Positions 3,406 to 44,750 of a DNA stretch of 64,000 bases are shown here, in pieces. The notes beneath the pieces were generated by a model, which searched no databases, was not told where the DNA came from, and saw nothing but the letters and a program-made list of their open reading frames with translations. The stretch's first letter is position 1, and every line of letters starts with the position of its first letter. A program made the translations under genes and the position numbers. Source of the DNA: Clostridia bacterium (GTDB lineage: Bacteria > Bacillota > Clostridia > Christensenellales > UBA1242); assembly GCA_028709705.1 (NCBI GenBank), contig JAQVWL010000002.1, positions 68,184 through 132,183 of the forward strand, given 5' to 3'.

Positions 3406-3879
3406 ATGCCAAGAAGAAATAGAGCGGTCAAAAAAGATGTTTTGGCTGACCCAATTCACAATAGCAAACTTTTGACCAAACTTGTTAATCAAGTTATGTT
3501 AGATGGAAAAAAAGGTATTGCACAAGGAATTGTTTATGGCGCTTTTGATTTGATAAAAGAAAAAACAGGAAATGAACCACTTGCTGTGTTTACACAAGCA
3601 CTTGAAAATGTTAAACCCGTTTTGGAAACAAAAGGTCGTAGAGTGGGCGGAGCAACATATCAAGTTCCTATGGAAATAAGACCTGAAAGAAGACAAACAT
3701 TAGGTATTCGTTGGATAGTCAATTTTGCCCGAAAAAGAAATGGCGAAAGAACTATGCAAGAAAAACTTGCTGGCGAGTTGCTTGATGCTTTTAACAACAC
3801 CGGTGCATCAGTAAAGAAAAAAGAAGAAATGCACAGAATGGCGGAAGCGAATAAAGCATTCGCGCACTTCCGCTGGTAA
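3406..3879 (+). CDS. rpsG: 30S ribosomal protein S7
   Basis: [20 protein letters not shown]...KAFAHFRW* is full-length S7, preceded by AAGGAG. Confidence 0.97.
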
Positions 3880-4050
3880 AATTTTCAATTTTTGTGGCGG
3901 TTTTTTGCGTTTCTGCCCACCTTACCTTGACAGGTATGTACCAAAAAGTACACTACCTTAGCCAAGTCAAAGCGGGGCGAGCCTTGAAACCCGCTCACAA
4001 AAATTGAAAATTTAAAGTACGAGAAATAAGTTTTTTATTTAAGCATGTGT
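3871..4050 (+). repeat. Copy 1 of a two-copy structured repeat: an 18-bp perfect terminal inverted repeat closes a ~136-nt imperfect hairpin (3878-4013), followed by a conserved AGTACG tail
   Basis: AAATTTTCAATTTTTGTG (3879-3896) and its exact reverse complement CACAAAAATTGAAAATTT (3996-4013). Apical stem GGTA.GTAC/GTAC..TACC (3933-3957). The same arms and layout recur at 44589-44719. Confidence 0.75.
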
Positions 4051-4057
4051 TTAATTT

Positions 4058-4340
4058 TTACGAAAGTTGGAAATTGCGAAGCCAGCCCACCCAATGCAGA
4101 AGCGGGCTTGATTTTCCAAGACAAAGTCGAAGGAAAATGGGGGATTTGAGTGCCGATAAGCAATGATATTTTGGAGGCGGTGCAGTTTGATTTATTAGCA
4201 AGGGGCAAACGGGGACGCTAGCAACTGACACGGGAGCGACTAGCGTAGGGTCACGTTGGCTCTCAGCCCCTTGACATGAAAGCAAAAGGCGAAAAACTTG
4301 TATTATAAAACCCAACAAAAAACAAATAAAAATCATAATA
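4058..4340. ncRNA. Candidate structured RNA or unclassified G+C-rich island in the rpsG-fusA spacer
   Basis: Hand count gives ~52% G+C over 4081-4260 (63% over 4201-4260), against ~30% in the flanks. Local stems include ACGCTAG(4216-4222)/CTAGCGT(4241-4247) and CAAGGGGC(4199-4206)/GCCCCTTG(4265-4272). There is no credible ORF, and I could not match it to any known RNA family by eye. Confidence 0.3.
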
Positions 4341-14814: not shown

Positions 14815-14830
14815 TGTTTCACGTGAAACA
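14815..14830. promoter_or_regulatory. parS site 1 (TGTTTCACGTGAAACA)
   Basis: A perfect 16-bp palindrome matching the Firmicutes parS consensus TGTTNCACGTGAAACA. Confidence 0.9.
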
Positions 14831-14870
14831 CATAATGCAATACATTGCTTTATAAATAAAGAAGCTAAAT

Positions 14871-14886
14871 TGTTTCACGTGGAACA
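14871..14886. promoter_or_regulatory. parS site 2 (TGTTTCACGTGGAACA)
   Basis: One mismatch from the palindrome, and the same family as sites 1 and 3. Confidence 0.85.
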
Positions 14887-14908
14887 ATTTAAAGAGTTTG
14901 TGTAAAAA

Positions 14909-14924
14909 TGTTTCACGTGAAACA
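14909..14924. promoter_or_regulatory. parS site 3 (TGTTTCACGTGAAACA)
   Basis: A perfect 16-bp parS palindrome, 45 nt downstream of the parB stop. Confidence 0.9.
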
Positions 14925-14968: not shown

Positions 14969-15928
14969 TTAACTGCGTTTTGCTTTGTTGTTAAAGTTTT
15001 TTAAGTCTTCAAGGGTTAGTTTTTTGCTTTTTAATATTTCTATTAATTCAAAAATCCTATCTAAATCATCTCTTGAAAAATATTCAATATTAATCTTTCC
15101 TTTATTATCATTACCAGTAATCGACACTTTGGTTGCAAAAACTCTTTGTAATTCTTCTGTAAAATCAATTAACTCATTGCTTTGTATAATATCATCTTTT
15201 AATTTGTTTTCTTGCTTATTTGTTGCATTTTTAACTAATTTTTCCAAATCTCTTACACTTAATTTGTTTTCTACTGCAATTTTTGCAATTTTTATTTGCA
15301 ATTTTTCATCATTTATAGTTATTAAAGCCCTTGCATGCCCTGCACTTAAATAATTATTTTCAACCATTAATAATATTTCTGATGGCAAATTTAATAATCT
15401 AATTAGATTTGCAATATTTGGTCTACTTTTTCCAATTCTGTCAGCAACAACTTCTTGGGTAAAGTTATATTCTTCCATCAATTGCTTTATCGCCCTTGCT
15501 GCTTCAATTGGGTTTAAATCTTCTCTTTGCAAGTTTTCAATCAAGGCAACTTCTTTAATTTGCCTTTCTGTGTAATCTTTAATTATGCAAGGGATTTGAT
15601 TTAAACCTGCAAGTTTAGACGCTCTAAAACGCCTTTCCCCCGCTATTATTAAAAACTTTCCGTTTTCAATTTTGTTAACAATAATTGGTTGTATAACCCC
15701 ATGTTGTTTTATACTTTCTGACAAATCCGCAAGCGCACTTTCATCAAATATTTTTCTTGGTTGATTAGGGTTCACCATCAACAAATCAAGACTTATTTGA
15801 CTTATTCCTTCATCATTTTTTCGGTTTTGTTGTAATTCATTATTGCTGTCTATATCGTTTTCATCGTCATAAATAGACATTAGTGCAGACAAACCTTTAC
15901 CTAAACCTTTTTTATTTATCATCGCCAT
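14969..15928 (-). CDS. parB: Chromosome partitioning protein ParB/Spo0J
   Basis: KGLGKGLSALM, GERRFRASKLAG and HTH-region motifs. The start is probably the ATG at 15928 or 15922. The start at 15943 in the ORF track is a TTG extension. Confidence 0.93.
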   Translation of the reverse strand: MAMINKKGLGKGLSALMSIYDDENDIDSNNELQQNRKNDEGISQISLDLLMVNPNQPRKIFDESALADLSESIKQHGVIQPIIVNKIENGKFLIIAGERRFRASKLAGLNQIPCIIKDYTERQIKEVALIENLQREDLNPIEAARAIKQLMEEYNFTQEVVADRIGKSRPNIANLIRLLNLPSEILLMVENNYLSAGHARALITINDEKLQIKIAKIAVENKLSVRDLEKLVKNATNKQENKLKDDIIQSNELIDFTEELQRVFATKVSITGNDNKGKINIEYFSRDDLDRIFELIEILKSKKLTLEDLKNFNNKAKRS

Positions 15929-16739
15929 TTCCCCTAAGTTCAACTTTGGTATGTTTGGTTATTTTATTATAACTATCTTTGTTTCTTTCAAGCAGTTCTT
16001 CTGCCAATTTAAGATAAGCGTCTGCCCCTTTTGAGTTTGAATCATATGTAATAATTGGTTCACCATGGCTTGGCGCTTCAGCTAACCTAATATTTCTAGG
16101 TATATAAGTGTCAAAAACTTTTTTACCAAAAAATTTAACTATTTCACCACTTACTTCCGCAATCAAGTTTGAACGATTGTCTTTCATGGTTAAAACCACA
16201 CCCTCAACGTTAAGGGAAGGATTTAGATGTTGCTTTATTAATCTAACAGTATTCATAAGTTGACTTAATCCTTCAAGTGCAAAAAATTCACACTGTATTG
16301 GAATGACAATTGAATGCGATGCGGTTAAAGCATTAACCGTTAACAAACCCAAAGATGGAGGGCAATCAATCATAATATAATCATAATCATCTAAAATTCG
16401 ACCTAAAATGTTTTTAATTATTTTTTCCCTTGAACTCATTTGGACCAAATCAATTTCCGCACCAGCCAAATCAACTGTTGCAGGAATAATATCCAAATTT
16501 TTTATGTGAGTTTTTAAAATTGACTCTTTTACCGAACACTCGCCATCTATTACATTATATATTGTTTTAACTTTGGAACTTTTTTCTATCCCAACCCCAC
16601 TTGTAGCGTTCCCTTGCGGATCCATATCCAAAATCAAAACTCTTTTGCCCATTATGGCAACATACGCTGAAAGGTTTATGCAGGTGGTAGTCTTCCCAAC
16701 TCCGCCTTTTTGATTTGCAAATGCTATAATTTTTCCCAT
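15912..16739 (-). CDS. parA: Chromosome partitioning ATPase ParA/Soj
   Basis: MGKIIAFANQKGGVGKTTT is a deviant Walker A motif. GGAG lies upstream of the ATG at 16739. Confidence 0.93.
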   Translation of the reverse strand: MGKIIAFANQKGGVGKTTTCINLSAYVAIMGKRVLILDMDPQGNATSGVGIEKSSKVKTIYNVIDGECSVKESILKTHIKNLDIIPATVDLAGAEIDLVQMSSREKIIKNILGRILDDYDYIMIDCPPSLGLLTVNALTASHSIVIPIQCEFFALEGLSQLMNTVRLIKQHLNPSLNVEGVVLTMKDNRSNLIAEVSGEIVKFFGKKVFDTYIPRNIRLAEAPSHGEPIITYDSNSKGADAYLKLAEELLERNKDSYNKITKHTKVELRGNGDDK

Positions 16740-17555: not shown

Positions 17556-19424
17556 TTATTTATTTAATTTATTTATTTTTAAATAGATAATTAATATTGA
17601 AATATCTGCTGGCGAAACTCCTGAAATCCTTGATGCTTGAGCAATTGTTAAAGGCCTAATTTTATTTAGCTTTTGCCTTGCTTCCAATCTCAACCCCTTT
17701 AACTCCGCGTAATCAATGTCTTCTGGTAGTTTTGCTTGTTCTTGTTTCATCATTTTTTCTATGTCTTCTTTTTGCTGTTTTAAATACCCCTCATATTTAA
17801 TTTCTGTATTTATTGCTTCTAAAATATTTGGTGCGAAATTATTAAAAATATTAAATTCATTATTAATATCAAAAATATTAATATTACTTCTTTTAATTAA
17901 ATCAATTATTTTTATTGGTTGCCTTGGAATGCTTTCATTTTTGTTTTTTAATAAATTAATTAATTTTTCATCAATTTTTAAATTATTTTTTAATATTTTT
18001 TTACAATTTTCTAAATTAATTAGTTTTTCTTTAAAAATTTTATATCTTTCACTATCAACCAAACCAACTTCTTTTCCAATTTCTGTCAGCCTAATGTCTG
18101 CATTATCTTGTCTTAACCACAACCTATACTCCGCCCTTGATGTCATCATTCGATATGGTTCGTTTGTTCCTTTTGTTACCAAGTCGTCAATCAAAACTCC
18201 AATGTAAGAACTGTTTCTACTTAATACAAGTTGCTCTTTTTGTTTTAAAAACAAATTGGCATTTATACCTGCAATTAATCCTTGCGCGGCCGCTTCTTCA
18301 TATCCACTCGTTCCATTTATTTGCCCAGCAGTAAATATTCCTAAAATGTTTTTATATTCCAAGGTTGGTTTAAGTTGCAAGGAATCAATGCAATCATACT
18401 CAATAGCATAAGCATTTCGCATTATTTTTACATTTTCAAGTCCTTTTATCGAAGGATATATTTGGTTTTGAATTTCAACAGGCATTGATGTGCTAATGCC
18501 TTGAACATAAATTTCATCAGTTGACATTGACTCCGGCTCCAAAAAAACTTGATGCGTTTCTTTGTCTGCAAAACGCATTATTTTATCTTCTATTGATGGG
18601 CAATATCTAGGACCAATTCCCTTAATAAGTCCACAATATAGTGGGGCTTTGTCTATATTTTTGAGTATTATTTTTTTGGTTTTCGGCGTTGTATGTGTAA
18701 GATAACAAACTGCTATATTTTTTGGCGTTTCTTTACTTAAAAAACTAAAACTTTGAATATTGTTGTCGCCTTCTTGTTTTTCTAGTATGTTAAAATTTAT
18801 TGATTTACCGCTTACTCGAGCAGGCGTTCCTGTTTTAAACCTGAAAATATTAAAGCCTAATTTAATTAAACTTTCGGTCAGTTTGTTTGCTGGCGCAAAA
18901 CCGTTTGGTCCACTTTCTCTTGTATATTTTCCAATTATTATTTTACTTTTTAGATAAACTCCGGTAGCAATTACTATAACATTGCACAAAAAGGTTTCGC
19001 CTTGGGCGGTTTTTACTCCACATACTTTGCCGTTTTCCACCAATATTTCTTCTACTTCCGCTTGTTTTAGTGTTAAATTTTCTTGGTCTTCAATAACTCT
19101 TTTCATACGGTTATGATATTCCAATTTGTCGGCTTGGGCACGTAAACTGTAAACTGCTGGGCCTTTGCTTCTGTTTAGCATTCTTATTTGAATAAGTGTT
19201 TTGTCGGTGTTGACACCCATTTCCCCGCCAAGTGCGTCAATTTCGCAAACCAAATGACCTTTTGCAGTTCCACCAATAGATGGATTGCAAGCCAAGAAAG
19301 CGACTGCGTCAAGATTAAGTGTTAAAAGGAGCGTGTTGTTCCCAGTTCTTGCTAGCGCTAAACCAGCCTCGCAACCTGCGTGACCTGCACCTATTACAAT
19401 TGCATCAAATTTTTTGTTTTCCAT
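17556..19424 (-). CDS. mnmG: tRNA uridine 5-carboxymethylaminomethyl modification enzyme MnmG (GidA)
   Basis: [21 protein letters not shown], 622 aa. Confidence 0.96.
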
Positions 19425-19441
19425 TTTTACCTTTTAAGAAC

Positions 19442-19525
19442 GCGACAGCGGTGTTCGCCCTGTGGGCGAACAGTTGTTTGCGAAGCAAACAACCGAAGTT
19501 GCCTTTGGCAACTTCCCGCTGTCGC
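19442..19525 (-). other. 84-nt G+C-rich cloverleaf/four-way-junction palindrome that fills the mnmE-mnmG spacer
   Basis: Outer stem GCGACAGCGG(19442-19451)/CCGCTGTCGC(19516-19525). It encloses three perfect 9-bp hairpins with 3-nt loops: TGTTCGCCC-TGT-GGGCGAACA (19452-19472), GTTGTTTGC-GAA-GCAAACAAC (19473-19493) and GAAGTTGCC-TTT-GGCAACTTC (19495-19515). Only one junction nucleotide (C19494) is unpaired. Confidence 0.85.
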
Positions 19526-19531
19526 TCCCCG

Positions 19532-20866
19532 CTACTTCCCCAAACAGAATTTTGAAAATATTTCATCAATAACACTTTCAACTTCTGTTTCGCCAGTTAT
19601 TTTTCCAAGTTCGTCCCAAACTTTTTTAACCAAAAAAGCAACAATATCTGCACTTTCAAAGTCGCTTTTTTGCAGTGTGTCTTCTAGTGCATATTTTGCA
19701 TTTTTAAGATTTGTTATTTGTCTTATATTGGTTAAAATCAAGCCCGACATATCCATTTTTTTGTCAACAACATTATCAAAAATTGCTTGTTTTATTTTGT
19801 CAATATTTTGTTTTTTTAATGCACTTATTTCAATGCTTTTTTCTTTTTCAAACTTTAAAGTTTTGTCAATATCAGACTTATTAAAAATCAATATTCGTTT
19901 TTCATTTTTTGTTAACTCCAAAAGTTTTTTATCTTCTTCGGTTAAAGTGTTGGAATTATCCAAAACAACCAAAACCAAGTCCGCTTCTTTGATTGACTGC
20001 AAACTTCGTTCAATGCCAATTTTTTCCACAATATCTTGACTTTCTCTTATACCGGCAGTGTCTATAAAATTAAATTTCATTCCATTAAAAGAAATTGTTT
20101 CAACAATTGTGTCTCGGGTTGTGCCGGCAATGCTAGTCACAATCGCTCTATCTTCGCCAATCAAAGCGTTTAACAAACTTGATTTGCCAACATTTGGTTT
20201 GCCAACAATTGCAATGTTTGTTCCGTTTTTTATAATTTTTCCCGCACTTGCAGTTGCAAGCAATTTGTTGATTTCAAACAAAATTTCTTTTAAAACTTTT
20301 TTGATTGATAAAATTGCACTGCTTTCGTCATCATATTCTGGATAATCAAGCGTAACCTCAATTTCTGCTAACCCTGTTGTAAGTTTGTTTTGTAATTCAA
20401 TAACCTTATTTTTTAGTTCGCCTTTAAGCATTTTATAGCCCGCTTTAAGTTCGGCTTCGCTTGTTGCGTTTATAACATCAATAATGCCTTCCGCTTTATC
20501 AAGTGTTAATTTTCCGTTCAAAAAAGCCCGTTTGGAAAACTCGCCATTTTCCGCAAGAACCGCACCATTTTCAAGCAGTGATTTCAAAATATTTTCCGCC
20601 AAGAACTCGCCACCATGGCATTGAAATTCTACCATATCCTCGCCCGTGTAAGACAACGGCGACTTAAAAAAAGCCATTAAGCATTTGTCTTTTATGTCTT
20701 TATAAACAAAATCGCCCAAATATAGTTTTCGCACTTCAATATTCTCTTTGTCTTTGCAAAAAAACACCTGTTTTGCAATTTTTAAACAGTTTTCGCCACT
20801 TATTCTTATAATGCTAATCGCCCCTGTGCCAAGCGGGGTTGATATGCACGCAATTGTTTTATTCAT
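19532..20866 (-). CDS. mnmE: tRNA modification GTPase MnmE (TrmE)
   Basis: MNKTIACISTPLGTGAISIIRISG..., G-domain GKPNVGKSSLLN, and the canonical C-terminal FCLGK*. The start at 20902 in the ORF track is a TTG extension. Confidence 0.95.
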   Translation of the reverse strand: MNKTIACISTPLGTGAISIIRISGENCLKIAKQVFFCKDKENIEVRKLYLGDFVYKDIKDKCLMAFFKSPLSYTGEDMVEFQCHGGEFLAENILKSLLENGAVLAENGEFSKRAFLNGKLTLDKAEGIIDVINATSEAELKAGYKMLKGELKNKVIELQNKLTTGLAEIEVTLDYPEYDDESSAILSIKKVLKEILFEINKLLATASAGKIIKNGTNIAIVGKPNVGKSSLLNALIGEDRAIVTSIAGTTRDTIVETISFNGMKFNFIDTAGIRESQDIVEKIGIERSLQSIKEADLVLVVLDNSNTLTEEDKKLLELTKNEKRILIFNKSDIDKTLKFEKEKSIEISALKKQNIDKIKQAIFDNVVDKKMDMSGLILTNIRQITNLKNAKYALEDTLQKSDFESADIVAFLVKKVWDELGKITGETEVESVIDEIFSKFCLGK

Positions 20867-20873
20867 ACCAAAA

Positions 20874-20902
20874 ATTATAGCACAACACAAAAACAAAAGC
20901 AA
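20874..20902 (-). promoter_or_regulatory. Promoter with leaderless spacing for mnmE: TTGCTT-N17-TGC-TATAAT-N7-ATG
   Basis: On the minus strand: -35 at 20902-20897, extended -10 TGCTATAAT at 20882-20874, then 7 nt (ttttggt) to the ATG at 20866. No Shine-Dalgarno sequence. Confidence 0.5.
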
Positions 20903-26781: not shown

Positions 26782-27522
26782 TTATTCTTTTTTTATATCA
26801 ATAACCAAAAACCTATTAGGTTCATCACCTTTACTATAACTTTGCAAGTTTGAGTAATTTTGCACAACATTGTGTATAACCCTTCTTTCAAAAGCATTCA
26901 TAGGTTCAAGTTCAGTCTTTTTTCCTGTTTCAGAAACTTTTATTGCAATTCTGTTTGCAAGTTGTTCCAAAGTGTCTTTTCGTTTTTCTTTAAAACCATC
27001 AATATCTAATATTATTTTTTTTGTATGTCTTGAAAACTTTGAACAATAAACAGACAAAACGTATTGCAAAGAATTAAGACTTTCGCCGTGATATCCTATC
27101 AATTTTGAAGTGTTTTCGCCGTTTATATTTACAAATATTTCATTTTCAGTTTCTTTTGTTTCAACAGTCGCTTCTAATTTTATTTCTTCAAAAAAGTCAC
27201 ACAAAAATTGTTTACAATTTTCCGCTTGCTTTATTTCTTTTGGTTCAATACTTTCAGTTTCTTGTTTTGTTGATAAAATTTCAGTTCTGGATTCTTGTTT
27301 TTCAACTTTTTGTTCCAATTCTTTCAATTTTCTTAATTTTAAAATTTCTTCATTAGTGTTCGCAATTTCTTCTGGAATAATCAACAATACTTTTGCTTTT
27401 TTAAAAAATCCGCCCGTTTCAATAATTTTAATATCTACATCTTCTTCTTTAAGGTTTAAAATCAACAAACCTTCTTCAATTGCCTTGTCGACTGATTTTG
27501 CTACACTTTCAAATTCAAACAT
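26782..27522 (-). CDS. jag: Jag/KhpB-type RNA-binding protein (Jag_N, KH and R3H domains)
   Basis: The N-terminus has VDKAIEEGLLILNL and the C-terminus has the R3H motif EPMNAFERRVIHNVV. It sits downstream of yidC as in other Bacillota. Confidence 0.88.
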   Translation of the reverse strand: MFEFESVAKSVDKAIEEGLLILNLKEEDVDIKIIETGGFFKKAKVLLIIPEEIANTNEEILKLRKLKELEQKVEKQESRTEILSTKQETESIEPKEIKQAENCKQFLCDFFEEIKLEATVETKETENEIFVNINGENTSKLIGYHGESLNSLQYVLSVYCSKFSRHTKKIILDIDGFKEKRKDTLEQLANRIAIKVSETGKKTELEPMNAFERRVIHNVVQNYSNLQSYSKGDEPNRFLVIDIKKE

Positions 27523-27524
27523 TA

Positions 27525-28577
27525 TTATCTCCTTCGGCTATAATCTAGTTTTGTTTTTTCATCTTTCTCTCTGTCTTTCTTAGCATAATACTTATCAAGC
27601 AATTTGTCAATTATTGGGAAAGTAATTAAAGAAACTAGTTGTCCGGCAACAATATAAAGTCCAAAAACTGCGTTGTAAAATAATGTAAAAACACCCATTA
27701 CTATTGGCAAAATAACAAGCAAAACTTTGTTTGTGCTTGCTTGTGTGTTGGCTGTTGAATCGTTTTGGTTTTTGTTTTTTGAACCTAATCTTTTTTGCAT
27801 TAAATATTGTGCAAAAAAAGACGAAACAACTGCAAAAACTGCTGTTATAAGGTATCCATTCGGTTGGTTTCTTTGTTCAAACAATATTTCCATTACATTA
27901 TTATAAGTTGCTTCAAACTCTTCTTTGTCTGTTTGTAACATTGATTTATAACTTGTGTTTTCTGCATTTATATCAGTCTTTACATTATCGCCAATTGCTG
28001 TTATATAATTGTCAAATGATAAAATCGCATGTGTCCAAAAATTGTCTGCAACCCAAACATTTTGTACCCAAATAAAATCATTTTTTATTTCATCATATTT
28101 TAACAACACCGCTTGTTGTTTTTCTTCTGTTGTTCCTGTGGTTATTTCATAAGTTTGTTTTAGTTCCAAATATTGTTCTTCAATCTTGTATGCAGACATA
28201 GCGTTTAAAGCGGTGAAAAGGCTTATAAATATAATTAAAGTTACCACAAGATAGCCTAACATAGAAAGACAAGAACCCATGATATTAAAGTTGTTAGATT
28301 TATAAAGTTCTGTTGTTTTTTGATTTAGTTTTGCCCTGTCATTAGCATATTGTTTTTGAAGTTTTTGCATTTGTGGTGCAATAACTGCTTGCATTTTTGC
28401 ATTATCTCTTGAAACTTTTTTATTCAAAAAATCAAAAGGTGATAAAATTAATTTTATTATCACCGTAAGTAAAATTATTGCCCAAGCATAGTCAAAAATA
28501 AAAGATTCAAAACTTGTTATAATATTAGCCCAAAAACCAGTTTGAGTTGCAACCAATAATGAATTTATAATATCCAT
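27525..28577 (-). CDS. yidC: Membrane protein insertase YidC
   Basis: Multi-TM protein in the rnpA-yidD-yidC-jag context, with a basic C-terminal tail. At 350 aa it is longer than typical Bacillota YidC, with a ~120-aa soluble insert. Confidence 0.85.
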   Translation of the reverse strand: MDIINSLLVATQTGFWANIITSFESFIFDYAWAIILLTVIIKLILSPFDFLNKKVSRDNAKMQAVIAPQMQKLQKQYANDRAKLNQKTTELYKSNNFNIMGSCLSMLGYLVVTLIIFISLFTALNAMSAYKIEEQYLELKQTYEITTGTTEEKQQAVLLKYDEIKNDFIWVQNVWVADNFWTHAILSFDNYITAIGDNVKTDINAENTSYKSMLQTDKEEFEATYNNVMEILFEQRNQPNGYLITAVFAVVSSFFAQYLMQKRLGSKNKNQNDSTANTQASTNKVLLVILPIVMGVFTLFYNAVFGLYIVAGQLVSLITFPIIDKLLDKYYAKKDREKDEKTKLDYSRRR

Positions 28578-28840
28578 TTCGCTTCTCCTTTTATATTTGT
28601 TGGAATAGGGTCAAAACCACCTTTGCTTTTTTGATTGCATTTTATAAGTCTTTTAAAACCAATAAGTATTCCTTTAAAAAAATGAAATTCTTTGATTGAA
28701 TTTATCATATAACTTGAACAAGAAGGTGTAAAACGGCATACTTTTGGTTTTAGTGGGGAAATAAAAATTTTGTATAACCAAACAAGCCCTATAAAAAACC
28801 AATCAAATGGCAAGTAAATCAAATTTAAAATTTTATTCAT
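28565..28840 (-). CDS. yidD: Membrane protein insertion efficiency factor YidD
   Basis: ISPLKPKVCRFTPSCSSYMINSIKEF is the hallmark YidD motif. Confidence 0.9.
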   Translation of the reverse strand: MNKILNLIYLPFDWFFIGLVWLYKIFISPLKPKVCRFTPSCSSYMINSIKEFHFFKGILIGFKRLIKCNQKSKGGFDPIPTNIKGEAKWIL

Positions 28841-29174
28841 TTATAAGGTTCGCCTTTTTAAAACAATATTCCATTTCTTTTTTTATTTCAAAAAAACCCA
28901 AGTTATCTATTCCTTTTTTTGCAACAATTACATAGTTAAAATTAGGATTAATATTTTTTTGTATCAAATTAAAACTTTCCCTTAATCGTCTTTTTACTTT
29001 ACTTCTAACTACACTTTTTCCAATTTTATTTGAAACTGAAAAACCAACTTTATAAGGTTTGAATTTTGTTTTGACAAAAATCAAAGTAATAAATTTTGAT
29101 TGTTTTGACTGACCTTTTCTATAAATAAATTGAAAATGTCTATTTTTTGTTAAGCGGTGTTCTTTTTTTATCAC
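28833..29174 (-). CDS. rnpA: Ribonuclease P protein component
   Basis: KKEHRLTKNRHFQFIYRKG..., 113 aa, GTG start, 13 nt downstream of rpmH. Confidence 0.9.
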   Translation of the reverse strand: MIKKEHRLTKNRHFQFIYRKGQSKQSKFITLIFVKTKFKPYKVGFSVSNKIGKSVVRSKVKRRLRESFNLIQKNINPNFNYVIVAKKGIDNLGFFEIKKEMEYCFKKANLINE

Positions 29175-29187
29175 ATTCCACCCCTAT

Positions 29188-29322
29188 TTATGCAGATAAA
29201 ACTTTTCTTCCCCTATTTCTTCGGTTTTTTATAACATTTCTTCCACCTTGGGTTTTCATTCTTTCTCTAAAACCGTGAACTTTACTTCTTTGGCGTTTTT
29301 TTGGTTGATATGTTCTTTTCAT
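29188..29322 (-). CDS. rpmH: 50S ribosomal protein L34 (not in the ORF track, 44 aa)
   Basis: The reverse-strand translation is [50 protein letters not shown] lies upstream. Confidence 0.95.
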
Positions 29323-29404
29323 AGTATCCTCCTGTTTGTGTGTTTAACTTTTCTATTATAAGTTAACAATCAAAATAAGTCAAGAAAAATTTTGATAGAA
29401 ATTT

Positions 29405-29438
29405 ATCAAAAAAACACACTTAAATTAAGTGTGTTTTA
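29405..29438 (-). terminator. Intrinsic terminator after the HAD-like gene
   Basis: ACACACTTAA/TTAAGTGTGT palindrome (29414-29434), followed by T7 on the minus strand. Confidence 0.65.
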
Positions 29439-29443
29439 AAATT

Positions 29444-29776
29444 TTATATAATGATTTTGTCAAAGTTTTTTAAAAAGTTTGGATTTACACTTCTATCGTC
29501 TATATAAATATCTGCTCCAATTTTTCTTGAATCGTTATTGTATTCCATATTTCTTTCCGGAACATTTTGATTTACATAATCAAAATCCAAACCAACTGTT
29601 TTACACATATCAACAGCTTCTTGAAGATATTTTCCTACTCTGCAAGTCCATAAAATTAAAGTATTACCTTCTTTTTTTAGGTTTTTTACAAAATTTATTA
29701 TATCCCATTTTGGTTGTCCTATATCTGGAAAAACATTTTCAAATAATGTTCCATCAAAATCTACTGCAACTACCAT
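29444..29776 (-). CDS. Small HAD-superfamily phosphatase-like protein (110 aa)
   Basis: VAVDFDGTL (HAD motif I) and IYIDD near the C-terminus. AGGTGA lies upstream. Confidence 0.6.
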   Translation of the reverse strand: MVVAVDFDGTLFENVFPDIGQPKWDIINFVKNLKKEGNTLILWTCRVGKYLQEAVDMCKTVGLDFDYVNQNVPERNMEYNNDSRKIGADIYIDDRSVNPNFLKNFDKIII

Positions 29777-29790
29777 ATCTCACCTATTTT

Positions 29791-30903
29791 TTAACCTTTC
29801 ATTAACCTAACAGGCAAAATCAAATATAGATATCTGTCTTGATCCCCATCAAATGGTGTAATAACACAAGGGTTTTGAGCAGAATTGAATTTTATGTTTA
29901 TAAATTCTTCTTGATTTACTTTCAATGCTTCCATAAAATATCTTGCATTAAAAGCAATCACAAACTCTTTTCCTTTAAACACAATGCTTAAATTTTCTTT
30001 TATATTTCCAATTTCAGAGCGTGAAGTAATACACAAGTTTTGGTCTCTTATATCAAATTGCACCAAGTTATTTTGTCCAATTTTGGAAAGCAAAGAAGCC
30101 CTTTCAAGTGCATCTTCTAATTGTTTTTTATTAATTGTTATCTTTGTTTCAAATTCACTGCTTATTATTTGTTTATAATTTATAAATTCGCCTTCAAGTA
30201 AACGAGTTGTGATAATACAATCTTCTAAATCAACCATCAAAAAATTTCTTTGAAAGTATATGTTTATAATTTTGTCGCTATCGTCTAATAGTTTTGCAAT
30301 TTCGTTCAAACTTCTTGCAGGAACAACAACAGAAGCAGATAAATTACTTTCTTTTATTTTTTGTGAATTAAGAGCAAGTCTAAACCCATCAAGAGCAACA
30401 GTTTTGATTTTTCCGTTTTCAATTTCAAACAAACAACCTTTAAGAATTGGTCTTGTGTCATCAATAGCAACGGAAAAAGCAGTTTTATTTATAAGGTTTT
30501 TAAAGTTTTTTTGTTCAATACCAAAAAAATCATTGCTTTCAAGTTTTTTAAAACAAGGGAATTCATAAACAGGGAAGCATTGAATAATAGTTTCACTATC
30601 AGTATATTTGATTTTTAAAGAATTGTTATCATTTAATTTTAACTCAATTCTTTCATTGGTAAGTTTTTTAATTAATTCTCCAAAAAATCTTCCTGGAACA
30701 ACTGTTTCTCCTTCAATTTTAACTTCTGCTTTTATCTTTTTTTCAATAGATAATTCCAAATCTGTGGCACTTAAAGTCACAATACCATCTTCCGCAACAA
30801 TTTTTATTCCTTCTAGAATAGGGTTTGTTGTTTTTGTACTTATAGCCCTTGAAACTGTTATAACAGCATCACATAAATCTAACCCATCACATATTAATTG
30901 CAT
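29791..30903 (-). CDS. dnaN: DNA polymerase III beta subunit (sliding clamp)
   Basis: 370 aa, MQLICDGLDLCDAVITVSRAIS..., three-domain length, AAGGAG upstream. Confidence 0.93.
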   Translation of the reverse strand: MQLICDGLDLCDAVITVSRAISTKTTNPILEGIKIVAEDGIVTLSATDLELSIEKKIKAEVKIEGETVVPGRFFGELIKKLTNERIELKLNDNNSLKIKYTDSETIIQCFPVYEFPCFKKLESNDFFGIEQKNFKNLINKTAFSVAIDDTRPILKGCLFEIENGKIKTVALDGFRLALNSQKIKESNLSASVVVPARSLNEIAKLLDDSDKIINIYFQRNFLMVDLEDCIITTRLLEGEFINYKQIISSEFETKITINKKQLEDALERASLLSKIGQNNLVQFDIRDQNLCITSRSEIGNIKENLSIVFKGKEFVIAFNARYFMEALKVNQEEFINIKFNSAQNPCVITPFDGDQDRYLYLILPVRLMKG

Positions 30904-31151
30904 TTTTTCTCCTTAAATTTTTTTAAATTTTTTGTTATACACGCGCGCTTATTATATAATATATTAAATATTATTTTAGTATTAGTATTAGTAGTGTTTG
31001 TGGAAATGTGGACAAGTTTTTACCCAAACACAATATATTGACTTGTTTTTAACAAATAACTACCATATACCGAAAAAAACTATCATTTTATTAAGTTTGT
31101 TTTTGGTGGATAAGTTTGTTAACAAAATTGCCAAATATCCACATTTCCACT
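30904..31151. other. Candidate oriC unwinding module in the dnaA-dnaN spacer
   Basis: DnaA boxes at 30999-31015 (TGTGGAAA+TGTGGACAA), 31105-31113 (GGTGGATAA) and 31135-31150 (ATATCCACA+TTTCCAC). A TAG-TAT-TAG-TAT-TAG-TAG trinucleotide array at 30977-30994 adjoins a box pair. A pure A/T tract runs 30951-30976. Confidence 0.6.
30977..30994. repeat. DnaA-trio-like trinucleotide array (TAGTAT TAGTAT TAGTAG)
   Basis: Six tandem TAG/TAT triplets lie 4 nt from the box pair at 30999-31015. Confidence 0.5.
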
Positions 31152-32504
31152 CTAACTAACATTTATAAGCATTTTTAACTGGGAAATTATATTTTTAATT
31201 TCAGGATCATTTTTAACTGATTCAGTTATTTTATCCCTTGCGTGAATAATTGTTGTGTGGTCTCTCCCTCCAAAGTATTTTCCAATACTTATCAAAGGAA
31301 CATCTAAAATTTCATTTATCAAATATATTGCTATCATTCTTGGTTCAACAATGTCTTTACTTTTCTTTTTTCCAACAATGTCTGTTTTTGATATGTTAAA
31401 ATGTGTGCAAACTACATCTGTTATTGAATCAAGAGTCAAATTTTCTTTCACAGTATTCAAATTTTCTTTAAACGCTTCTTTTGCTTCATCAATACCTGCA
31501 GATTTTTTTCCAAGCAAAGAAGCAAAGAAATGCACTTTTGAAAGTAAACCTTCCATCTCTCTAATATTTGTGTTGATTTTGTCTGCAATAAATTCAATTA
31601 CTTCATCATCAATAAAATATCTTTCCTGTTGTGCTTTTTTTCTTAAAATAGCAATTCTTGTTTCAAAGTCTGGCGGTTGAATATCTTGAATTAACCCACA
31701 AGCAAATCTTGATTCCAACCTTTGAGCAAGTGTCGCAATTTCTTTTGGAGGGCGATCGGAAGATAAAATAATTTGTTTGTTGTTTTGATATAAGTCGTTA
31801 AATGTGTGGAAGAACTCTTCTTGTGTGGAATCTTTTTTTGAAAGGAATTGAATATCATCAACCATAAGTATATCAAGATTTCTATATTTTTCTCTAAACT
31901 CAATTTTACTTTCTTCTTTTTTTGAAAGCATAGACTCAATATAATCGTTTGTAAATTTTTCACAAGTAACATATTTGATTTTTAGGTTTGGATAAAACTG
32001 AATTATATAATTTCCAATAGCGTGCAATAAGTGAGTTTTTCCTAAACCAACACCACCATAAATAAACAATGGATTAAATTTTTTTCCGGGATTTTCAGCA
32101 ACAGCTCTTGCACCCGCATAAACGAATTGATTGCTTTTTCCAACCACAAAATTTTCAAAAGTGTATTTCAAATTAAACATATTTTTATCTTCTTCTGTTT
32201 TTGTAAAAATTTGTTCATTTGCTGGATTATGTATTTTTATATATTGTTCTTTTTCAACAAGGTCAATAATTTCAACTTCTGTGTTTTCGTCAAAAACTTG
32301 AAACACAGTTTCTTTTATTTGTTTTAAGTGATTTTTTATTAGTTGATTTTTTGCAGTTGTTGTTGAAGCAACCAAAACCAAAACTTTATTTTCTCTATAT
32401 TCCAAAACTTCAATTGTTTTTATCCAAAGTTCAAAAGACACAGAACTAACTTGAACTTCTAACTTTGATAAAACTTTATTCCAAAGTGATTTTATTTCTT
32501 CCAT
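31152..32504 (-). CDS. dnaA: Chromosomal replication initiator DnaA
   Basis: 450 aa with AAA+ Walker A GGVGLGKTHLLHAIGN and C-terminal DNA-binding helix GGRDHTTIIHARDKI. Confidence 0.97.
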   Translation of the reverse strand: MEEIKSLWNKVLSKLEVQVSSVSFELWIKTIEVLEYRENKVLVLVASTTTAKNQLIKNHLKQIKETVFQVFDENTEVEIIDLVEKEQYIKIHNPANEQIFTKTEEDKNMFNLKYTFENFVVGKSNQFVYAGARAVAENPGKKFNPLFIYGGVGLGKTHLLHAIGNYIIQFYPNLKIKYVTCEKFTNDYIESMLSKKEESKIEFREKYRNLDILMVDDIQFLSKKDSTQEEFFHTFNDLYQNNKQIILSSDRPPKEIATLAQRLESRFACGLIQDIQPPDFETRIAILRKKAQQERYFIDDEVIEFIADKINTNIREMEGLLSKVHFFASLLGKKSAGIDEAKEAFKENLNTVKENLTLDSITDVVCTHFNISKTDIVGKKKSKDIVEPRMIAIYLINEILDVPLISIGKYFGGRDHTTIIHARDKITESVKNDPEIKNIISQLKMLINVS

Positions 32505-32608
32505 ATCGTGAGAACTCCTAATTTCATATTATTATATATTACTATACCAACAAAAGTCAATAAATTATCCAAAATCAAAAACCAATATAATTTTTGTAAA
32601 ACATTCAA

Positions 32609-32637
32609 TTTACAAATTTTTAAAAGTTTGGTATAAT
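32609..32637 (+). promoter_or_regulatory. Promoter abutting the recF start: TTTACA-N17-TATAAT-N6-GTG
   Basis: TTTACA at 32609-32614, TATAAT at 32632-32637, six A residues, then the GTG at 32644. No Shine-Dalgarno sequence. Confidence 0.4.
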
Positions 32638-32643
32638 AAAAAA

Positions 32644-33726
32644 GTGAAAATAAAAAACTTAAACTTAGAAAATTTTAGAAACTATTCACAAGTCAATGTG
32701 GATTTTTTTGATGGAGTAAATATTATTCAAGGAAAAAACGCACAAGGCAAAACCAATTTACTTGAAGCAATATTTTTTTGTTCAATAGGAAAAAGTTTAA
32801 GAGTTGGAAGAGAAAAAGAAATAATAAAATTTAACGAAAACAATGCAAAAATAAATATAAAAATAGAAAAAAAATATAAAAAATCACAAATTTTAATTTA
32901 TTTTTCTAAAAATAATAAAAAAAGCATTAAAATTGACAACATTTCAATAAAAAAAATTGGAGAACTTTTGGGTGAGTTTAATGCAATTTATTTTTCTCCT
33001 GATGAACTTAAATTAATAAAAGAGAGTCCGGAAGATAGAAGACGATTTATTGATATTCATATTTCACAAATTTCAAAACAATATTTTTACTTGTTAAATA
33101 GATATGAAAAAATATTAGCAAACAGAAATAAATTATTAAAAAATAATACTGATACAAAAATTTTAAAAGAAACAATTGAAATTTGGAATACACAATTAAT
33201 AGACATTGGAAGTAAAATAATTTTATATAGAATTGATTTTATAAACAAACTTTTACCTTATGCAAAAAAATCACATAGTTATCTAACAAGCAATGATGAG
33301 ATTTTAGATTTGGAATATAGTGGGATAAAAGGAAAAGATTTATTAGATATAAAAACAAAATTGCAAAAAGAATTGTCCAACAGTTTAAACAAAGATATAA
33401 AATTGGGTTTCACAAATATTGGCCCGCATAGAGATGATATAAAAATCTTTGTTAACAAGATAGATATAAAAACTTTTGGTTCGCAAGGTCAACAAAGAAC
33501 AGTAGCACTTTCTTTGAAACTTGCCGAACTTGAAATAATGAAAGAAGAAACAGGAGAAATGCCAATACTTTTACTTGATGATGTTTTAAGTGAGTTAGAT
33601 AAAAGCCGAAAAGAAAAGTTGTTAAAATTTTGTAGCAAAACTCAAACTTTTATAACAGGCACAGAGTTTGAATTTAATCCAAATTATCATTATTTTACAA
33701 TAAATAATGGAAATATAAAAAAATAA
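32644..33726 (+). CDS. recF: DNA replication and repair protein RecF
   Basis: KIKNLNLENFRNY, Walker A GKNAQGKTNLLEAI, and signature FGSQGQQRTVALSLKLAE...LLLDDVLSELD. Confidence 0.93.
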   Translation: MKIKNLNLENFRNYSQVNVDFFDGVNIIQGKNAQGKTNLLEAIFFCSIGKSLRVGREKEIIKFNENNAKINIKIEKKYKKSQILIYFSKNNKKSIKIDNISIKKIGELLGEFNAIYFSPDELKLIKESPEDRRRFIDIHISQISKQYFYLLNRYEKILANRNKLLKNNTDTKILKETIEIWNTQLIDIGSKIILYRIDFINKLLPYAKKSHSYLTSNDEILDLEYSGIKGKDLLDIKTKLQKELSNSLNKDIKLGFTNIGPHRDDIKIFVNKIDIKTFGSQGQQRTVALSLKLAELEIMKEETGEMPILLLDDVLSELDKSRKEKLLKFCSKTQTFITGTEFEFNPNYHYFTINNGNIKK

Positions 33727-37437: not shown

Positions 37438-39270
37438 TTAACTCATTATTACCATTGCCAAAATTATTGGTCTTCTTTTTGTTTTTCTAAAAATAAAGTT
37501 TGAAATAAATTTTCTAATTTCGTTTTTAAGGAACAAATGGTCAACCTCTTTAAAATCATAGTTTTTTATAAAAACACTTAAATTTGATTTTAGTTCGTTT
37601 ACAATGCTGTCAGACTCATCGTTGTAAACCACCCCACGAGTTATAATTAACGGGTCGGTTATAAGTTCTGCGGTAGTGCCTGAAATGTTAAGAATTGCAA
37701 CACAAAAACCATCTTCGCTTAATTGTTTTCTATCCTTCAAAACTGAACTTGCGGTATCTCCAAGCCCCATTCCATCAACAAGTCGCATACCTGCTTTTGT
37801 TGTTCCAACAACCTTTAAGTTGTTTGGGCTAAGTTCGACCTGCATACCAATCTCGGGTATAATTATATGACTTTCTAACAACCCCATTGTCATTGCAAGA
37901 TCCTTGTGAACCTTTAAATGTCGCCACTCTCCGTGTACAGGAATAAGAAATTTTGGTTTTGTTAAAGCGTGCATTGTTTTTATTTCTTCTTGACAAGCGT
38001 GTCCAGAAACATGCACATCTGCAAGTTCGTCAAAAATTACTTCAACACCCTTTTTGTAAAGTCTGTTAATAATATTATAAACATTTTTTTCATTTCCAGG
38101 AATAGGCGATGCGGAAATAACAACACAATCATTTGTTGTCAACTTAAATTTTGTAAACTCATCAGATGCCATTCTTGTCAAAGCACTCATAGGTTCACCT
38201 TGACTTCCTGTTGATATAAGCAAAATTTCATTGTCGGCATATTTTCCAATTTTGTCAATATCAATTACATTGTCTTTATTATAATGCAATTCTCCAACTT
38301 TCATAGCAACTTCGCTAACATTTATCATACTTCTGCCTGTAAATGCAACTTTTCTTTTATATTTTTCTGCCAAATCCATAATTTGTTGAAGTCTGTGGAT
38401 ATTGCTTGCAAAAGTTGCAATAATAAGTCTTTTTTGTGTAAAAGGTTTGAAAGCAACTTCTTCCAAAACTTTTCCAACATTCGACTCGCTCATTGAGTAA
38501 CCCTTTCGGCAAACATTGGTGCTTTCACACATCAAAAGGTTTATGCCCTTTTTCCCTAATTCGCCAAAGCGAGTAATATCAATAACATCTTTGTCTATGG
38601 GGGTATAATCTATTTTAAAATCACCTGTATGCACAATGTTTCCAGCAGGGGTTGTCATACAAACTGCCAATGCGCCAGAAATTGAATGGTTTACTTTAAT
38701 AAATTCAATAACAAAATCCCCTATTTTTAGTACATTTTTTGCTTTTACTTCAATAGTTTTATATTTTATTCTTTGATACTCTTTCATTTTGTTTTCAATC
38801 AAACCAAGTGTAAGTTTGGAACCGTAAACAGGCACTCTTATGGCATCTAAAACAAAAGGTAAAGCACCAATATGGTCCTCGTGACCGTGTGTTATAATAA
38901 TTGCTTTTATTTTGTGTCTGTTTGCAAGTAAGTATGAAATATCAGGCACAACAACATCAATGCCCGGCAAATCTGAGTCTGGAAACGTTAGTCCGCAATC
39001 CAAAATAATAATCTCGTTTTGTGTTTCAAAAACAGTCATATTTTTCCCAATTTCGCCCACTCCGCCCAAGAATGTAATTTTTACCTTATTATTGTTTTTG
39101 TTGTTTTGTGTTTGCAAATCATTTGCTGTGCTTGCAACTTGTTTGTTTAAATTGTTTGGCCTTCTAATAAAAGACCTTTGTTGATTTGAAACAAATTTTT
39201 GTTCATTGTTTGAAAAACTTTTTGCATTTTCTGCCAAATTTATTTGTTTTTCGTTGTTTTGTTTGTTCAT
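37438..39270 (-). CDS. rnj: Ribonuclease J (metallo-beta-lactamase/beta-CASP) with an N/Q-rich N-terminal extension of about 60 aa
   Basis: ITHGHEDHIGALPF (HxHxDH), beta-CASP layout, 610 aa, AAGGAG upstream. Confidence 0.9.
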   Translation of the reverse strand: MNKQNNEKQINLAENAKSFSNNEQKFVSNQQRSFIRRPNNLNKQVASTANDLQTQNNKNNNKVKITFLGGVGEIGKNMTVFETQNEIIILDCGLTFPDSDLPGIDVVVPDISYLLANRHKIKAIIITHGHEDHIGALPFVLDAIRVPVYGSKLTLGLIENKMKEYQRIKYKTIEVKAKNVLKIGDFVIEFIKVNHSISGALAVCMTTPAGNIVHTGDFKIDYTPIDKDVIDITRFGELGKKGINLLMCESTNVCRKGYSMSESNVGKVLEEVAFKPFTQKRLIIATFASNIHRLQQIMDLAEKYKRKVAFTGRSMINVSEVAMKVGELHYNKDNVIDIDKIGKYADNEILLISTGSQGEPMSALTRMASDEFTKFKLTTNDCVVISASPIPGNEKNVYNIINRLYKKGVEVIFDELADVHVSGHACQEEIKTMHALTKPKFLIPVHGEWRHLKVHKDLAMTMGLLESHIIIPEIGMQVELSPNNLKVVGTTKAGMRLVDGMGLGDTASSVLKDRKQLSEDGFCVAILNISGTTAELITDPLIITRGVVYNDESDSIVNELKSNLSVFIKNYDFKEVDHLFLKNEIRKFISNFIFRKTKRRPIILAMVIMS

Positions 39271-44590: not shown

Positions 44591-44750
44591 ATTTTCAATT
44601 TTTGTGGAAATCTTTGAACTTTCTGGCAAAATTTTAAGACAGGGCAGTACCGGAAGTACAGCCCGTGCCTAAAAATTTGTGCCGAGCGTCCAAACCTTTC
44701 TCACAAAAATTGAAAATTTGCAGTACGCAAGATAAATTTTCTACTTAATT
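44582..44750 (+). repeat. Copy 2 of the structured repeat (hairpin 44589-44719 plus AGTACG tail)
   Basis: It has the identical 18-nt arms (44589-44606 and 44702-44719). The apical stem is GGGC.GTAC-CGGAA-GTAC.GCCC (44642-44664). As in copy 1, it is preceded by CGCTGGTAA. Confidence 0.75.

Follow-up and report, generated by a model that had tools for sequence, protein, structure and literature searches.

The rlmD-mnmE-mnmG-rsmG-parA-parB genes of an uncultured Clostridia bacterium (contig JAQVWL010000002.1) form a tight string in which the gaps are 6-55 nt, except for a 107-nt mnmE-mnmG spacer that is filled by an 84-nt, almost completely paired element. What, then, is such a structure doing between two genes whose products, MnmE and MnmG, must assemble into one enzyme (MnmE-MnmG)? 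We addressed this question in a 64-kb stretch of the contig (64,000 nt, referred to here as the window), numbering positions on the + strand; the messenger RNA (mRNA) sense of the locus is the minus strand. Comparison with the few relatives that carry the element points to a structure under selection, and the role that we prefer for it, tentatively, is one in the decay or processing of the mRNA at the 5' boundary of mnmG.

Structure and position of the element

The element (19442-19525; Table 1) is a four-way junction in which a 10-bp outer stem surrounds three perfect 9-bp hairpins with 3-nt loops, giving 37 Watson-Crick pairs and zero G.U pairs in 84 nt. Its G+C content is 0.58, compared with 0.31 for the window, and the region ranks among the two most GC-rich 84-mers of the window (0.595). 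It lies 6 nt from the mnmE stop codon (19532-19534) and 17 nt from the mnmG ATG (19422-19424). An earlier sequence-only reading of the window had described this architecture, with a single unpaired junction base, 37 pairs and ~58% G+C in a ~30% G+C genome, and had placed it at the same distances from the two genes; every detail agrees with the sequence and with the coordinates of the open reading frames (ORFs). The folding of both strands that it had suggested as a check returned the four-way junction as the minimum free energy (MFE) structure of each (z about -8 to -10), and the same structure was obtained for single-stranded DNA. The predicted free energies were -63.2 kcal/mol for sense-strand RNA (z=-8.3, with 0/200 shuffles as good), -58.6 kcal/mol for + strand RNA (z=-9.7) and -40.5 kcal/mol for single-stranded DNA (z=-10.3). 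In a sliding 110-nt fold scan of the window the element was an extreme outlier, at -58.6 versus -37.7 kcal/mol for the next unrelated site. By these predictions, its folding is autonomous and yields a closed four-way junction of very high stability, the two ends of which are paired.

Since the element lies inside the rlmD-mnmE-mnmG-rsmG-parA-parB string and no promoter-like site was found on the sense strand just upstream of it in the window, it is most simply, and probably, part of the operon mRNA. Its position inside the gene string thus supports, as probable, the earlier proposal that it is transcribed within the operon.

Occurrence in relatives

A search with MnmG of the window (identical to NCBI protein MDD4815737.1) among 5.8 billion proteins returned only a handful of close relatives. 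In L001 (SRR34068998; MnmG 88% identical) the element lies at 1394-1477, 4 nt past the mnmE stop, and in L093 (ERR8135359; MnmG 77% identical) at 520-608, immediately after the mnmE stop (0 nt). A four-way junction is also found right before the mnmG ribosome-binding site (RBS) in L002, L091 and L092 (MnmG 79% identical; L002 from SRR21150912 / SRR21150901). This copy (L002:3003-3077) has the outer stem GGCGAAAGU/ACUUUCGCC, hairpins of 9, 7 and 7 bp and 3-nt loops, and its sequence is almost wholly different; MAFFT gave no sensible alignment of it. With a covariance model built from the window and L001, the score was 67 bits for L093 and 31-36 bits for L002 (E about 1e-4 to 1e-6). Folding predicts a four-way junction of -44 kcal/mol (z=-6.4) for the L002 copy, and all four copies, those of the window, L001, L093 and L002, adopt this topology at MFE with z from -6.4 to -8.7. 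Across these four genomes the distance from the element to the mnmG ATG is 16-24 nt and that to the mnmG Shine-Dalgarno sequence is 5-16 nt.

The genes around the L002 copy are rearranged. No mnmE lies upstream of mnmG, a divergent dnaE being found there instead, and in L002, L091 (10001-13948) and L092 rsmG is gone downstream, with mnmG followed directly by parA-parB. The element was retained next to mnmG despite this rearrangement, and two samples had an identical element sequence. A promoter-like sequence, TTAACA-17-TG-TATTAT (10/12 match, extended -10), ends 13 nt before the L002 outer stem, and alternative promoter-like hexamers end 4 nt before it. On the basis of these hexamers, the L002 element is predicted to lie at the very 5' end of the mnmG mRNA.

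The element also leaves a trace in public annotation. MnmG is called at L001:1355-3364 (669 aa) and L002:3001-4953 (650 aa) instead of about 620 aa. These overlong calls are an annotation artefact, in that they start upstream and run through the stop-free, GC-rich element. The practical lesson is that gene callers pass through the element and that the resulting public MnmG proteins are 28-47 residues too long.

About 90 other relatives lack the element, including L003, L005, L088, L089, L090, L094 and L096 and all 80 GTDB species representatives (56-70% MnmG identity). The mnmE-mnmG junction is highly variable among relatives of about 76-77% MnmG identity. In L003 (2990-3005) the two genes overlap as TAATG, and AT-rich spacers with no comparable structure occur in L005 (2815-3000, 186 nt), L088 (2071-2500, 430 nt) and L090 (2013-2500, 488 nt; the upper figure is also given as 490). 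The comparison of this spacer among relatives, which the sequence-only reading had proposed, indicates that the element is an insertion where others have the TAATG overlap or AT-rich spacers. By sequence comparison it is a gain confined to a small group, that is, a clade-specific insertion.

Selection on the helices

Selection and covariation were analyzed in a model-guided alignment of the window, L001 and L093. Identity at the four-fold degenerate sites of mnmG is only 42-50% among these genomes, with 33% expected at random from composition, indicating that neutral sites are close to saturation. In contrast, identity within the element is 80-89% overall and rises to 93-95% in paired columns. 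Variable columns make up 7 of the 74 paired but 13 of the 15 unpaired columns (Fisher p=4.8e-9), and 97.3% of alignment cells are paired, compared with 30-53% when the partners are slid. Invariant pairs number 33 of 37, and two pairs have changed on both sides. Pair 4 of the outer stem is A-U in the window, G.U in L093 and G-C in L001, and the basal pair of hairpin 1 is G-C in the window and C-G in L093. L093 also has a 2-nt insertion flanking the loop of hairpin 1, which adds an A-U pair below the loop and restores an AAA triloop. All 9 pairs of hairpin 2 are invariant, as are 8 pairs of hairpin 3; L001 and L093 lack the basal pair of the latter.

The unpaired positions behave differently. 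The single junction nucleotide is G in the window (mRNA sense), absent in L001 and C in L093. The loops are 3-5 nt long and read (window first) AAA/GAA/AAAAU in hairpin 1, UUC/UCC/GAAA in hairpin 2 and ACA/UCAC/AUGG in hairpin 3. Since they vary in both sequence and length, recognition mediated by the loops is unlikely. These alignments indicate that selection keeps the helices and that function resides in the four helices and not in the loops. They also indicate that the element is neither chance nor junk, but a real, selected structural element. The sequence-only reading had considered that relatives might carry the element with mismatches and no structural conservation; instead, the structure is conserved and compensatory changes are present.

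Copy number and the mobile-element alternative

With filters off, the covariance model R1 matched one site in the window, the element itself, and models R1 and R2 detected no further copies, either in all loci or, without filters, in the window and 14 close relatives. L091 has a single copy in 14.3 kb, and a custom stem-(hairpin x3)-stem scanner combined with the covariance models found nothing else in about 690 kb of related loci. Searches of the window with the outer arms, exact and with 1 mismatch, also gave no further copy; the outer-arm pattern CAGCGG-N55-75-CCGCTG had two extra matches in the loci (L040 and L082), which fold poorly and were rejected as chance. Two DNA patterns scanned in JGI metagenome contigs and viral contigs had no match, nor did blastn against plasmids and phages, and a protein search for mis-called ORFs, with the element translated in all six frames, retrieved nothing. 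The element is single-copy in all sequence available (the 64-kb window, L091 and about 690 kb of related loci).

These results bear on the leading alternative to a role in mRNA, namely that the element is a selfish or once-mobile palindromic DNA element, similar to miniature inverted-repeat transposable elements (MITEs) or repetitive extragenic palindromic (REP) sequences, that inserted before mnmG and is now tolerated or domesticated. The helices would then be kept either because a mis-folded GC-rich insert is harmful between coupled genes or because a transposase needs the hairpins. We consider this explanation unlikely, although several features are in its favor. At 10 bp, the outer stem resembles a terminal inverted repeat, the element forms a GC-rich island (0.58) in a genome of 0.31 G+C, for which the GC clusters of AT-rich mitochondrial genomes are comparable, and it is a clade-specific insertion with a patchy phylogenetic distribution, missing from about 90 related loci. 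The possible inversion of the L002 copy and the scarcity of G.U pairs also fit a constraint at the DNA level. However, it occurs once in 64 kb and once in the 14.3 kb of L091, with no other copy in about 690 kb, and is not matched in collections of plasmids, phages, viral contigs or JGI metagenomes. Among the about 46 ORFs of the window, none was found to have a transposase, integrase or Y1 transposase domain (Pfam, NCBIfam). No target-site duplication was detected either, as no direct repeat is shared by the flanks (…AAGAAC / element / TCCCCG…), and the same holds in L001, L093 and L002. Moreover, the element occupies the same site across lineages in which synonymous sites are saturated, with its substitutions in the loops, which is typical of an element maintained by the host rather than of one that has spread recently.

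Comparison with described repeats is in line with this assessment. REPs are imperfect palindromes of 20-40 nt with a GTAG foot, present in hundreds of copies per genome and associated with a Y1 (RAYT / TnpA-REP) transposase (PMC3333891). Like REPs and bacterial interspersed mosaic elements (BIMEs), for example in malE-malF, the element is a GC-rich intergenic palindrome that is no terminator and is probably transcribed in its operon, and such repeats can stabilize upstream mRNA (PMC3333891); it differs in being an 84-nt compound of four perfect helices that is single-copy in the available sequence and restricted to one orthologous site. A GTAG near its foot is present only in the window and L001, where it is formed by the Lys and stop codons of mnmE (AAG-TAG); L093 has ATAG, and the motif is not found in L002. 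MITEs (Correia, RUP and BOX) share with the element a short non-coding insertion, terminal inverted repeats, strong predicted structure and frequent co-transcription, but they are multi-copy, with target-site duplications, conserved ends and variable sites, whereas the element has one site, no duplication and conserved helices. The proposals of the sequence-only reading that the element is REP/BIME-like or a mobile palindrome therefore fare poorly, given one copy in the 64 kb and one in the 14 kb of L091, no target duplication, no transposase or recombinase among the about 46 ORFs scanned and conservation across saturated lineages, and the abundant REP-like family that it had envisaged was not found in the sequence searched.

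The window does hold a genuine two-copy inverted-repeat element (3879-4013 and 44589-44719, about 131-135 nt), which shows that such elements exist in this genome and to that extent favors a mobile origin. Its copies have identical 18-bp terminal inverted repeats (AAATTTTCAATTTTTGTG / CACAAAAATTGAAAATTT) and diverged, hairpin-forming interiors, with an MFE of about -37 kcal/mol that ranks 2-3 in the fold scan of the window. Each starts at the TAA stop codon of the upstream gene (rpsG and a DUF2207 gene, respectively) and is TA-flanked, and this repeat was found in none of the 97 loci compared. It has the appearance of a MITE or of a structured 3'-untranslated region (UTR) repeat; the mnmE-mnmG element does not resemble it.

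mRNA or DNA

Three observations hint that the element acts on the mRNA strand. The one G.U pair, in the A-U / G.U / G-C series of the outer stem, is a pair only on the mRNA-sense strand; the L093 sense strand folds 11 kcal/mol more stably than the antisense strand; and the element is constantly attached to the mnmG RBS. We conclude that it most likely belongs to the mRNA level.

An action as a DNA-level junction or cruciform, for example as a site for a junction- or hairpin-specific protein in the origin-proximal region, is quite improbable by our estimate. The element lies about 13 kb from dnaA-dnaN and in the parAB-parS neighborhood, either strand, and DNA as well, gives an equally perfect fold with nearly all pairs Watson-Crick, and the + strand carries GCGAAGC, d(GCGAAGC) being known to form an unusually stable DNA mini-hairpin. 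However, 9-bp GC-closed arms are generally short for cruciform extrusion from a duplex, and RNA is indicated both by the G.U pair and by the more stable fold of the sense strand in L093. In addition, the association is with the start of mnmG and with no replication or segregation site, and the element was kept beside mnmG in the rearranged L002 locus.

Established classes of structured sequence

A tRNA or transfer-messenger RNA (tmRNA) was rejected because ARAGORN finds no gene in the window and Rfam gave no tRNA or tmRNA match there even at E<=10. The stems of 9-10 bp and loops of 3 nt also differ from the 7/4/5/5-bp stems of a tRNA, and D, T and 7-nt anticodon loops are missing. Rfam 15 returned zero gathering-level matches in the window, the best sub-threshold match having 17.3 bits versus a cut-off of 47.4 (E=0.67). 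Over the whole 64 kb there is no tRNA gene and no Rfam family at threshold, including upstream of ribosomal protein and translation factor genes. An intrinsic terminator was likewise rejected, as no U/T tract follows the outer stem on either strand; two "terminator-like" calls of the scan are inner hairpins whose "tail" is the next hairpin. The statements of the sequence-only reading that the element is not a tRNA and has no U-tract are thus borne out.

Neither a coding sequence nor a protein operator fits the element. All six frames are open in the window, but indels of 1 and 2 nt separate the three orthologues in the loops and the junction, so that no reading frame is preserved. Palindromic operators of dimeric proteins are at odds with central spacers of variable length (3 to 5 nt), and the nested outer repeat, 64 nt apart, fits only an intramolecular fold. 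Sequestration or insulation of the RBS was also rejected, since the RBS lies outside the fold and neither deletion nor shuffling of the element alters the predicted accessibility of this site; the predicted unpaired fraction is 0.75 for the mnmG Shine-Dalgarno sequence in the window and 0.64-0.88 for the -16..+5 region in the four genomes.

A protein- or tRNA-bound regulatory platform, in which a cloverleaf mimic would feed MnmE/MnmG or hypomodified tRNA back on mnmG, appears highly improbable. The cloverleaf-like topology in front of a tRNA-modification gene is suggestive, and some triloops (AAA, GAA, UUC and UCC) happen to match codons or anticodons of tRNAs that are MnmEG substrates. Nevertheless, the loops are the least conserved part in sequence and length, for which reason we rejected them as codon or anticodon displays for these tRNAs; ARAGORN and Rfam detect nothing tRNA-like, the 9-10-bp stems and 3-nt loops come without D, T or anticodon loops, and the RBS is free in every predicted state.

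A candidate role at the 5' boundary of mnmG

The explanation that we favor, tentatively and as possible rather than probable, is that the element would be a lineage-restricted, single-copy, transcribed structural mRNA module at the mnmG 5' boundary, acting as a decay barrier or processing landmark. Stem-loops close to the 5' end shield Firmicute mRNAs from RNase J1 (and such structures likewise block RNase E-type entry), and stable intercistronic hairpins, such as the REP in malE-malF, guard upstream segments from 3' exonucleases, which leads to unequal segment stabilities within operons. The window encodes RNase J (37438-39270, minus strand, with beta-CASP and C-terminal domains), indicating that the organism has the Firmicute 5'-end-dependent (5'-to-3' exonuclease) decay pathway. 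In the mechanism that we propose, the stable closed junction would act as a physical barrier or a processing landmark in mRNA decay. Exonucleases moving 3' to 5' from downstream would be halted at the element, protecting the mnmE segment, and the mnmG-rsmG-parAB segment would gain either a 5' end that is structured and resistant to RNase J or a site for double-strand-specific cleavage. In this way, the amounts of mnmE and mnmG message could be set independently.

Roles reported for REPs include mRNA stabilization (PMC3333891), RNase R acts on REP stem-loops (PMC2777011), and the structured hbs 5' UTR of Bacillus subtilis has been described (PMC5737220). Like the 5' stabilizer stem-loops of ompA in E. 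coli and of the aprE and ermC leaders and the hbs 5' UTR in B. subtilis, the element is a stable structure just before an RBS. The resemblance extends to hosts with 5'-end-dependent decay and, in L002, to a predicted location a few nt from the transcription start. The known stabilizers, however, are single hairpins of unrelated sequence, and the element is operon-internal in three of the four genomes, where a 5' end would need processing.

Cleavage of the transcript between mnmE and mnmG by an RNase III-type enzyme would be a variant of the same idea, and we regard it as rather unlikely, next in rank after a mobile origin. If the 10-bp outer stem stacks coaxially on a 9-bp hairpin, the helix would span about two turns, the size that RNase III needs, and both the intercistronic position and the conservation of the helices in sequence as well as pairing would suit such a site. 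The early mRNAs of phage T7 offer a parallel in their RNase III hairpins, which are stable intercistronic duplexes that leave protective hairpins at the new ends once cut. However, the T7 sites are single hairpins with internal loops, and known RNase III sites in general are usually single, long, imperfect hairpins, whereas the element, located on a bacterial chromosome, forms a four-way junction free of mismatches. In addition, cutting would separate nothing in L002, where the element is at the predicted 5' end of the transcript, and rnc was not seen in the window, though it was not searched for.

Ranking just behind this variant, and more doubtful than it, is a new class of bacterial operon "punctuation", of which the element would be the first example and in which a self-contained, orientation-tolerant four-way-junction RNA would be excised or used as a landmark like the tRNAs of mitochondria, or would let ribosomes cross at its base between the mnmE stop and the mnmG start; it might even persist as a very stable 84-nt RNA with its own function. 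Mitochondrial tRNA punctuation has the same four-way topology between two genes of one transcript, and a processing-landmark role is conceivable here, but the element has no tRNA-like loop, stem length or conserved nucleotide, in keeping with the negative ARAGORN and Rfam results.

A compact bridge that preserves translational coupling, with the paired ends holding the mnmE stop beside the mnmG RBS for re-initiation as at the gene overlap of L003, is in our view improbable. In its favor, the stop codon precedes the stem by 6 nt in the window, 4 nt in L001 and 0 nt in L093, so that a terminating ribosome must open the outer stem; in addition, stop and start codons overlap (TAATG) in the relative L003, and the RBS remains unpaired in the predictions. 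However, L002 carries the element without an upstream cistron, the stem-to-ATG distance varies from 16 to 24 nt, and the argument is purely geometric. We know of no bacterial precedent for translational coupling across a four-way junction.

Several observations weigh against a decay barrier or processing landmark in mRNA as we propose it. The covariation score alone is not significant, as 106/500 shuffles reach the observed score with three sequences, and the argument for function therefore draws on how stems, loops and synonymous sites differ and on the conservation of the L002 architecture without that of its sequence. Only four members are known, and the sequence of the helices is kept beyond what maintenance of structure alone demands. 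The ~100 helix pairs in four genomes hold a single G.U, so that the antisense strand and DNA fold equally well. Orientation is also ambiguous for L002, for which the first model favors an inverted copy (36.2 versus 31.0 bits) and the three-sequence model gives 34.1 versus 33.3 bits. The scarce wobble pairs and the possibly inverted L002 copy are hints of a DNA-level or orientation-independent role. In a neighbor-joining MnmG tree, L003 (P0004), which lacks the element, groups with the window and L001, and L093 and L002 fall in another branch; the carriers are therefore not a clean clade, which implies repeated loss, poor resolution of the tree or some lateral spread. Finally, since RBS accessibility is the same with, without or with a shuffled element, folding gives no argument for an effect on translation.

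Of the three roles suggested by the sequence-only reading, an RNA platform that uncouples mnmE and mnmG expression corresponds to the explanation favored here; the REP-like or mobile element is the part that did not hold up, and the DNA cruciform gained no specific support. No described family matches the element. Stable intercistronic and 5'-UTR mRNA structures have long been known, and what is new is an architecture built on a four-way junction, pairing that is nearly perfect and the strength of selection within a tiny clade of uncultured bacteria. If our explanation is correct, a compact natural RNA insulator of about -60 kcal/mol, of recent origin in one small clade of uncultured Clostridia, would separate the fates of two cistrons; in relatives of this clade, the genes overlap or have long AT-rich spacers between them. 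Four-way junctions, beyond simple hairpins, would then serve as bacterial mRNA decay barriers, and the element would provide synthetic biology with a ready-made, orientation-tolerant intercistronic part.

Features of the locus and its surroundings

Table 1. Coordinates of the mnmE-mnmG element, its parts on either strand and the adjoining genes
Feature	Position	Strand	Basis or remark
mnmG, downstream cistron	17556-19424	-	NCBIfam equivalog TIGR00136, 838 bits
mnmG Shine-Dalgarno-like AAAGGU	19429-19434	-	7 nt downstream of element, outside fold
Whole element	19442-19525	-	MFE fold on both strands, strongest fold of window, sole covariance-model match in window
Outer stem, left arm GCGACAGCGG	19442-19451	+	Sequence read
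Hairpin TGTTCGCCC-TGT-GGGCGAACA	19452-19472	+	Sequence read
Hairpin GTTGTTTGC-GAA-GCAAACAAC	19473-19493	+	Sequence read
Unpaired C, sole unpaired junction base	19494	+ (G in mRNA sense)	Sequence read
Hairpin GAAGTTGCC-TTT-GGCAACTTC	19495-19515	+	Sequence read
Outer stem, right arm CCGCTGTCGC	19516-19525	+	Sequence read
Outer stem 5' arm, mRNA sense GCGACAGCGG	19516-19525	-	Starts 6 nt past mnmE UAG
Hairpin 1, mRNA sense GAAGUUGCC-AAA-GGCAACUUC	19495-19515	-	Sequence and fold
Hairpin 2, mRNA sense GUUGUUUGC-UUC-GCAAACAAC	19473-19493	-	Sequence read
Hairpin 3, mRNA sense UGUUCGCCC-ACA-GGGCGAACA	19452-19472	-	Sequence read
Outer stem 3' arm, mRNA sense CCGCUGUCGC	19442-19451	-	Sequence read
mnmE, upstream cistron	19532-20902	-	NCBIfam equivalog TIGR00450, 391 bits

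A set of origin-region genes lies at 26782-33726 and comprises jag/khpB, yidC, dnaN (29791-30903) and dnaA (31152-32504) on the minus strand and a recF-like gene (32644-33726) on the plus strand. The lowest G+C content of the window (0.235) is at 32-34 kb, the likely oriC. The linkage of jag to mnmE, usual elsewhere, is broken here by a plus-strand P-type ATPase gene and two unannotated ORFs. Three parS palindromes, TGTTTCACGTGAAACA (two exact and one with 1 mismatch), lie within 110 nt at 14815-14924, compared with a chance expectation of 0.09. The cluster occupies the AT-rich spacer that immediately follows parB (14969-15943, minus strand).

Finally, the first copy of the two-copy inverted repeat is followed by an unusually long rpsG-fusA spacer (4020-4340), which had no Rfam match (best E=0.2, to an unrelated small RNA). 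Its G+C content reaches 0.595 (4196-4279) and its predicted structure is about -37 kcal/mol, and it may represent an undescribed leader or non-coding RNA upstream of fusA.

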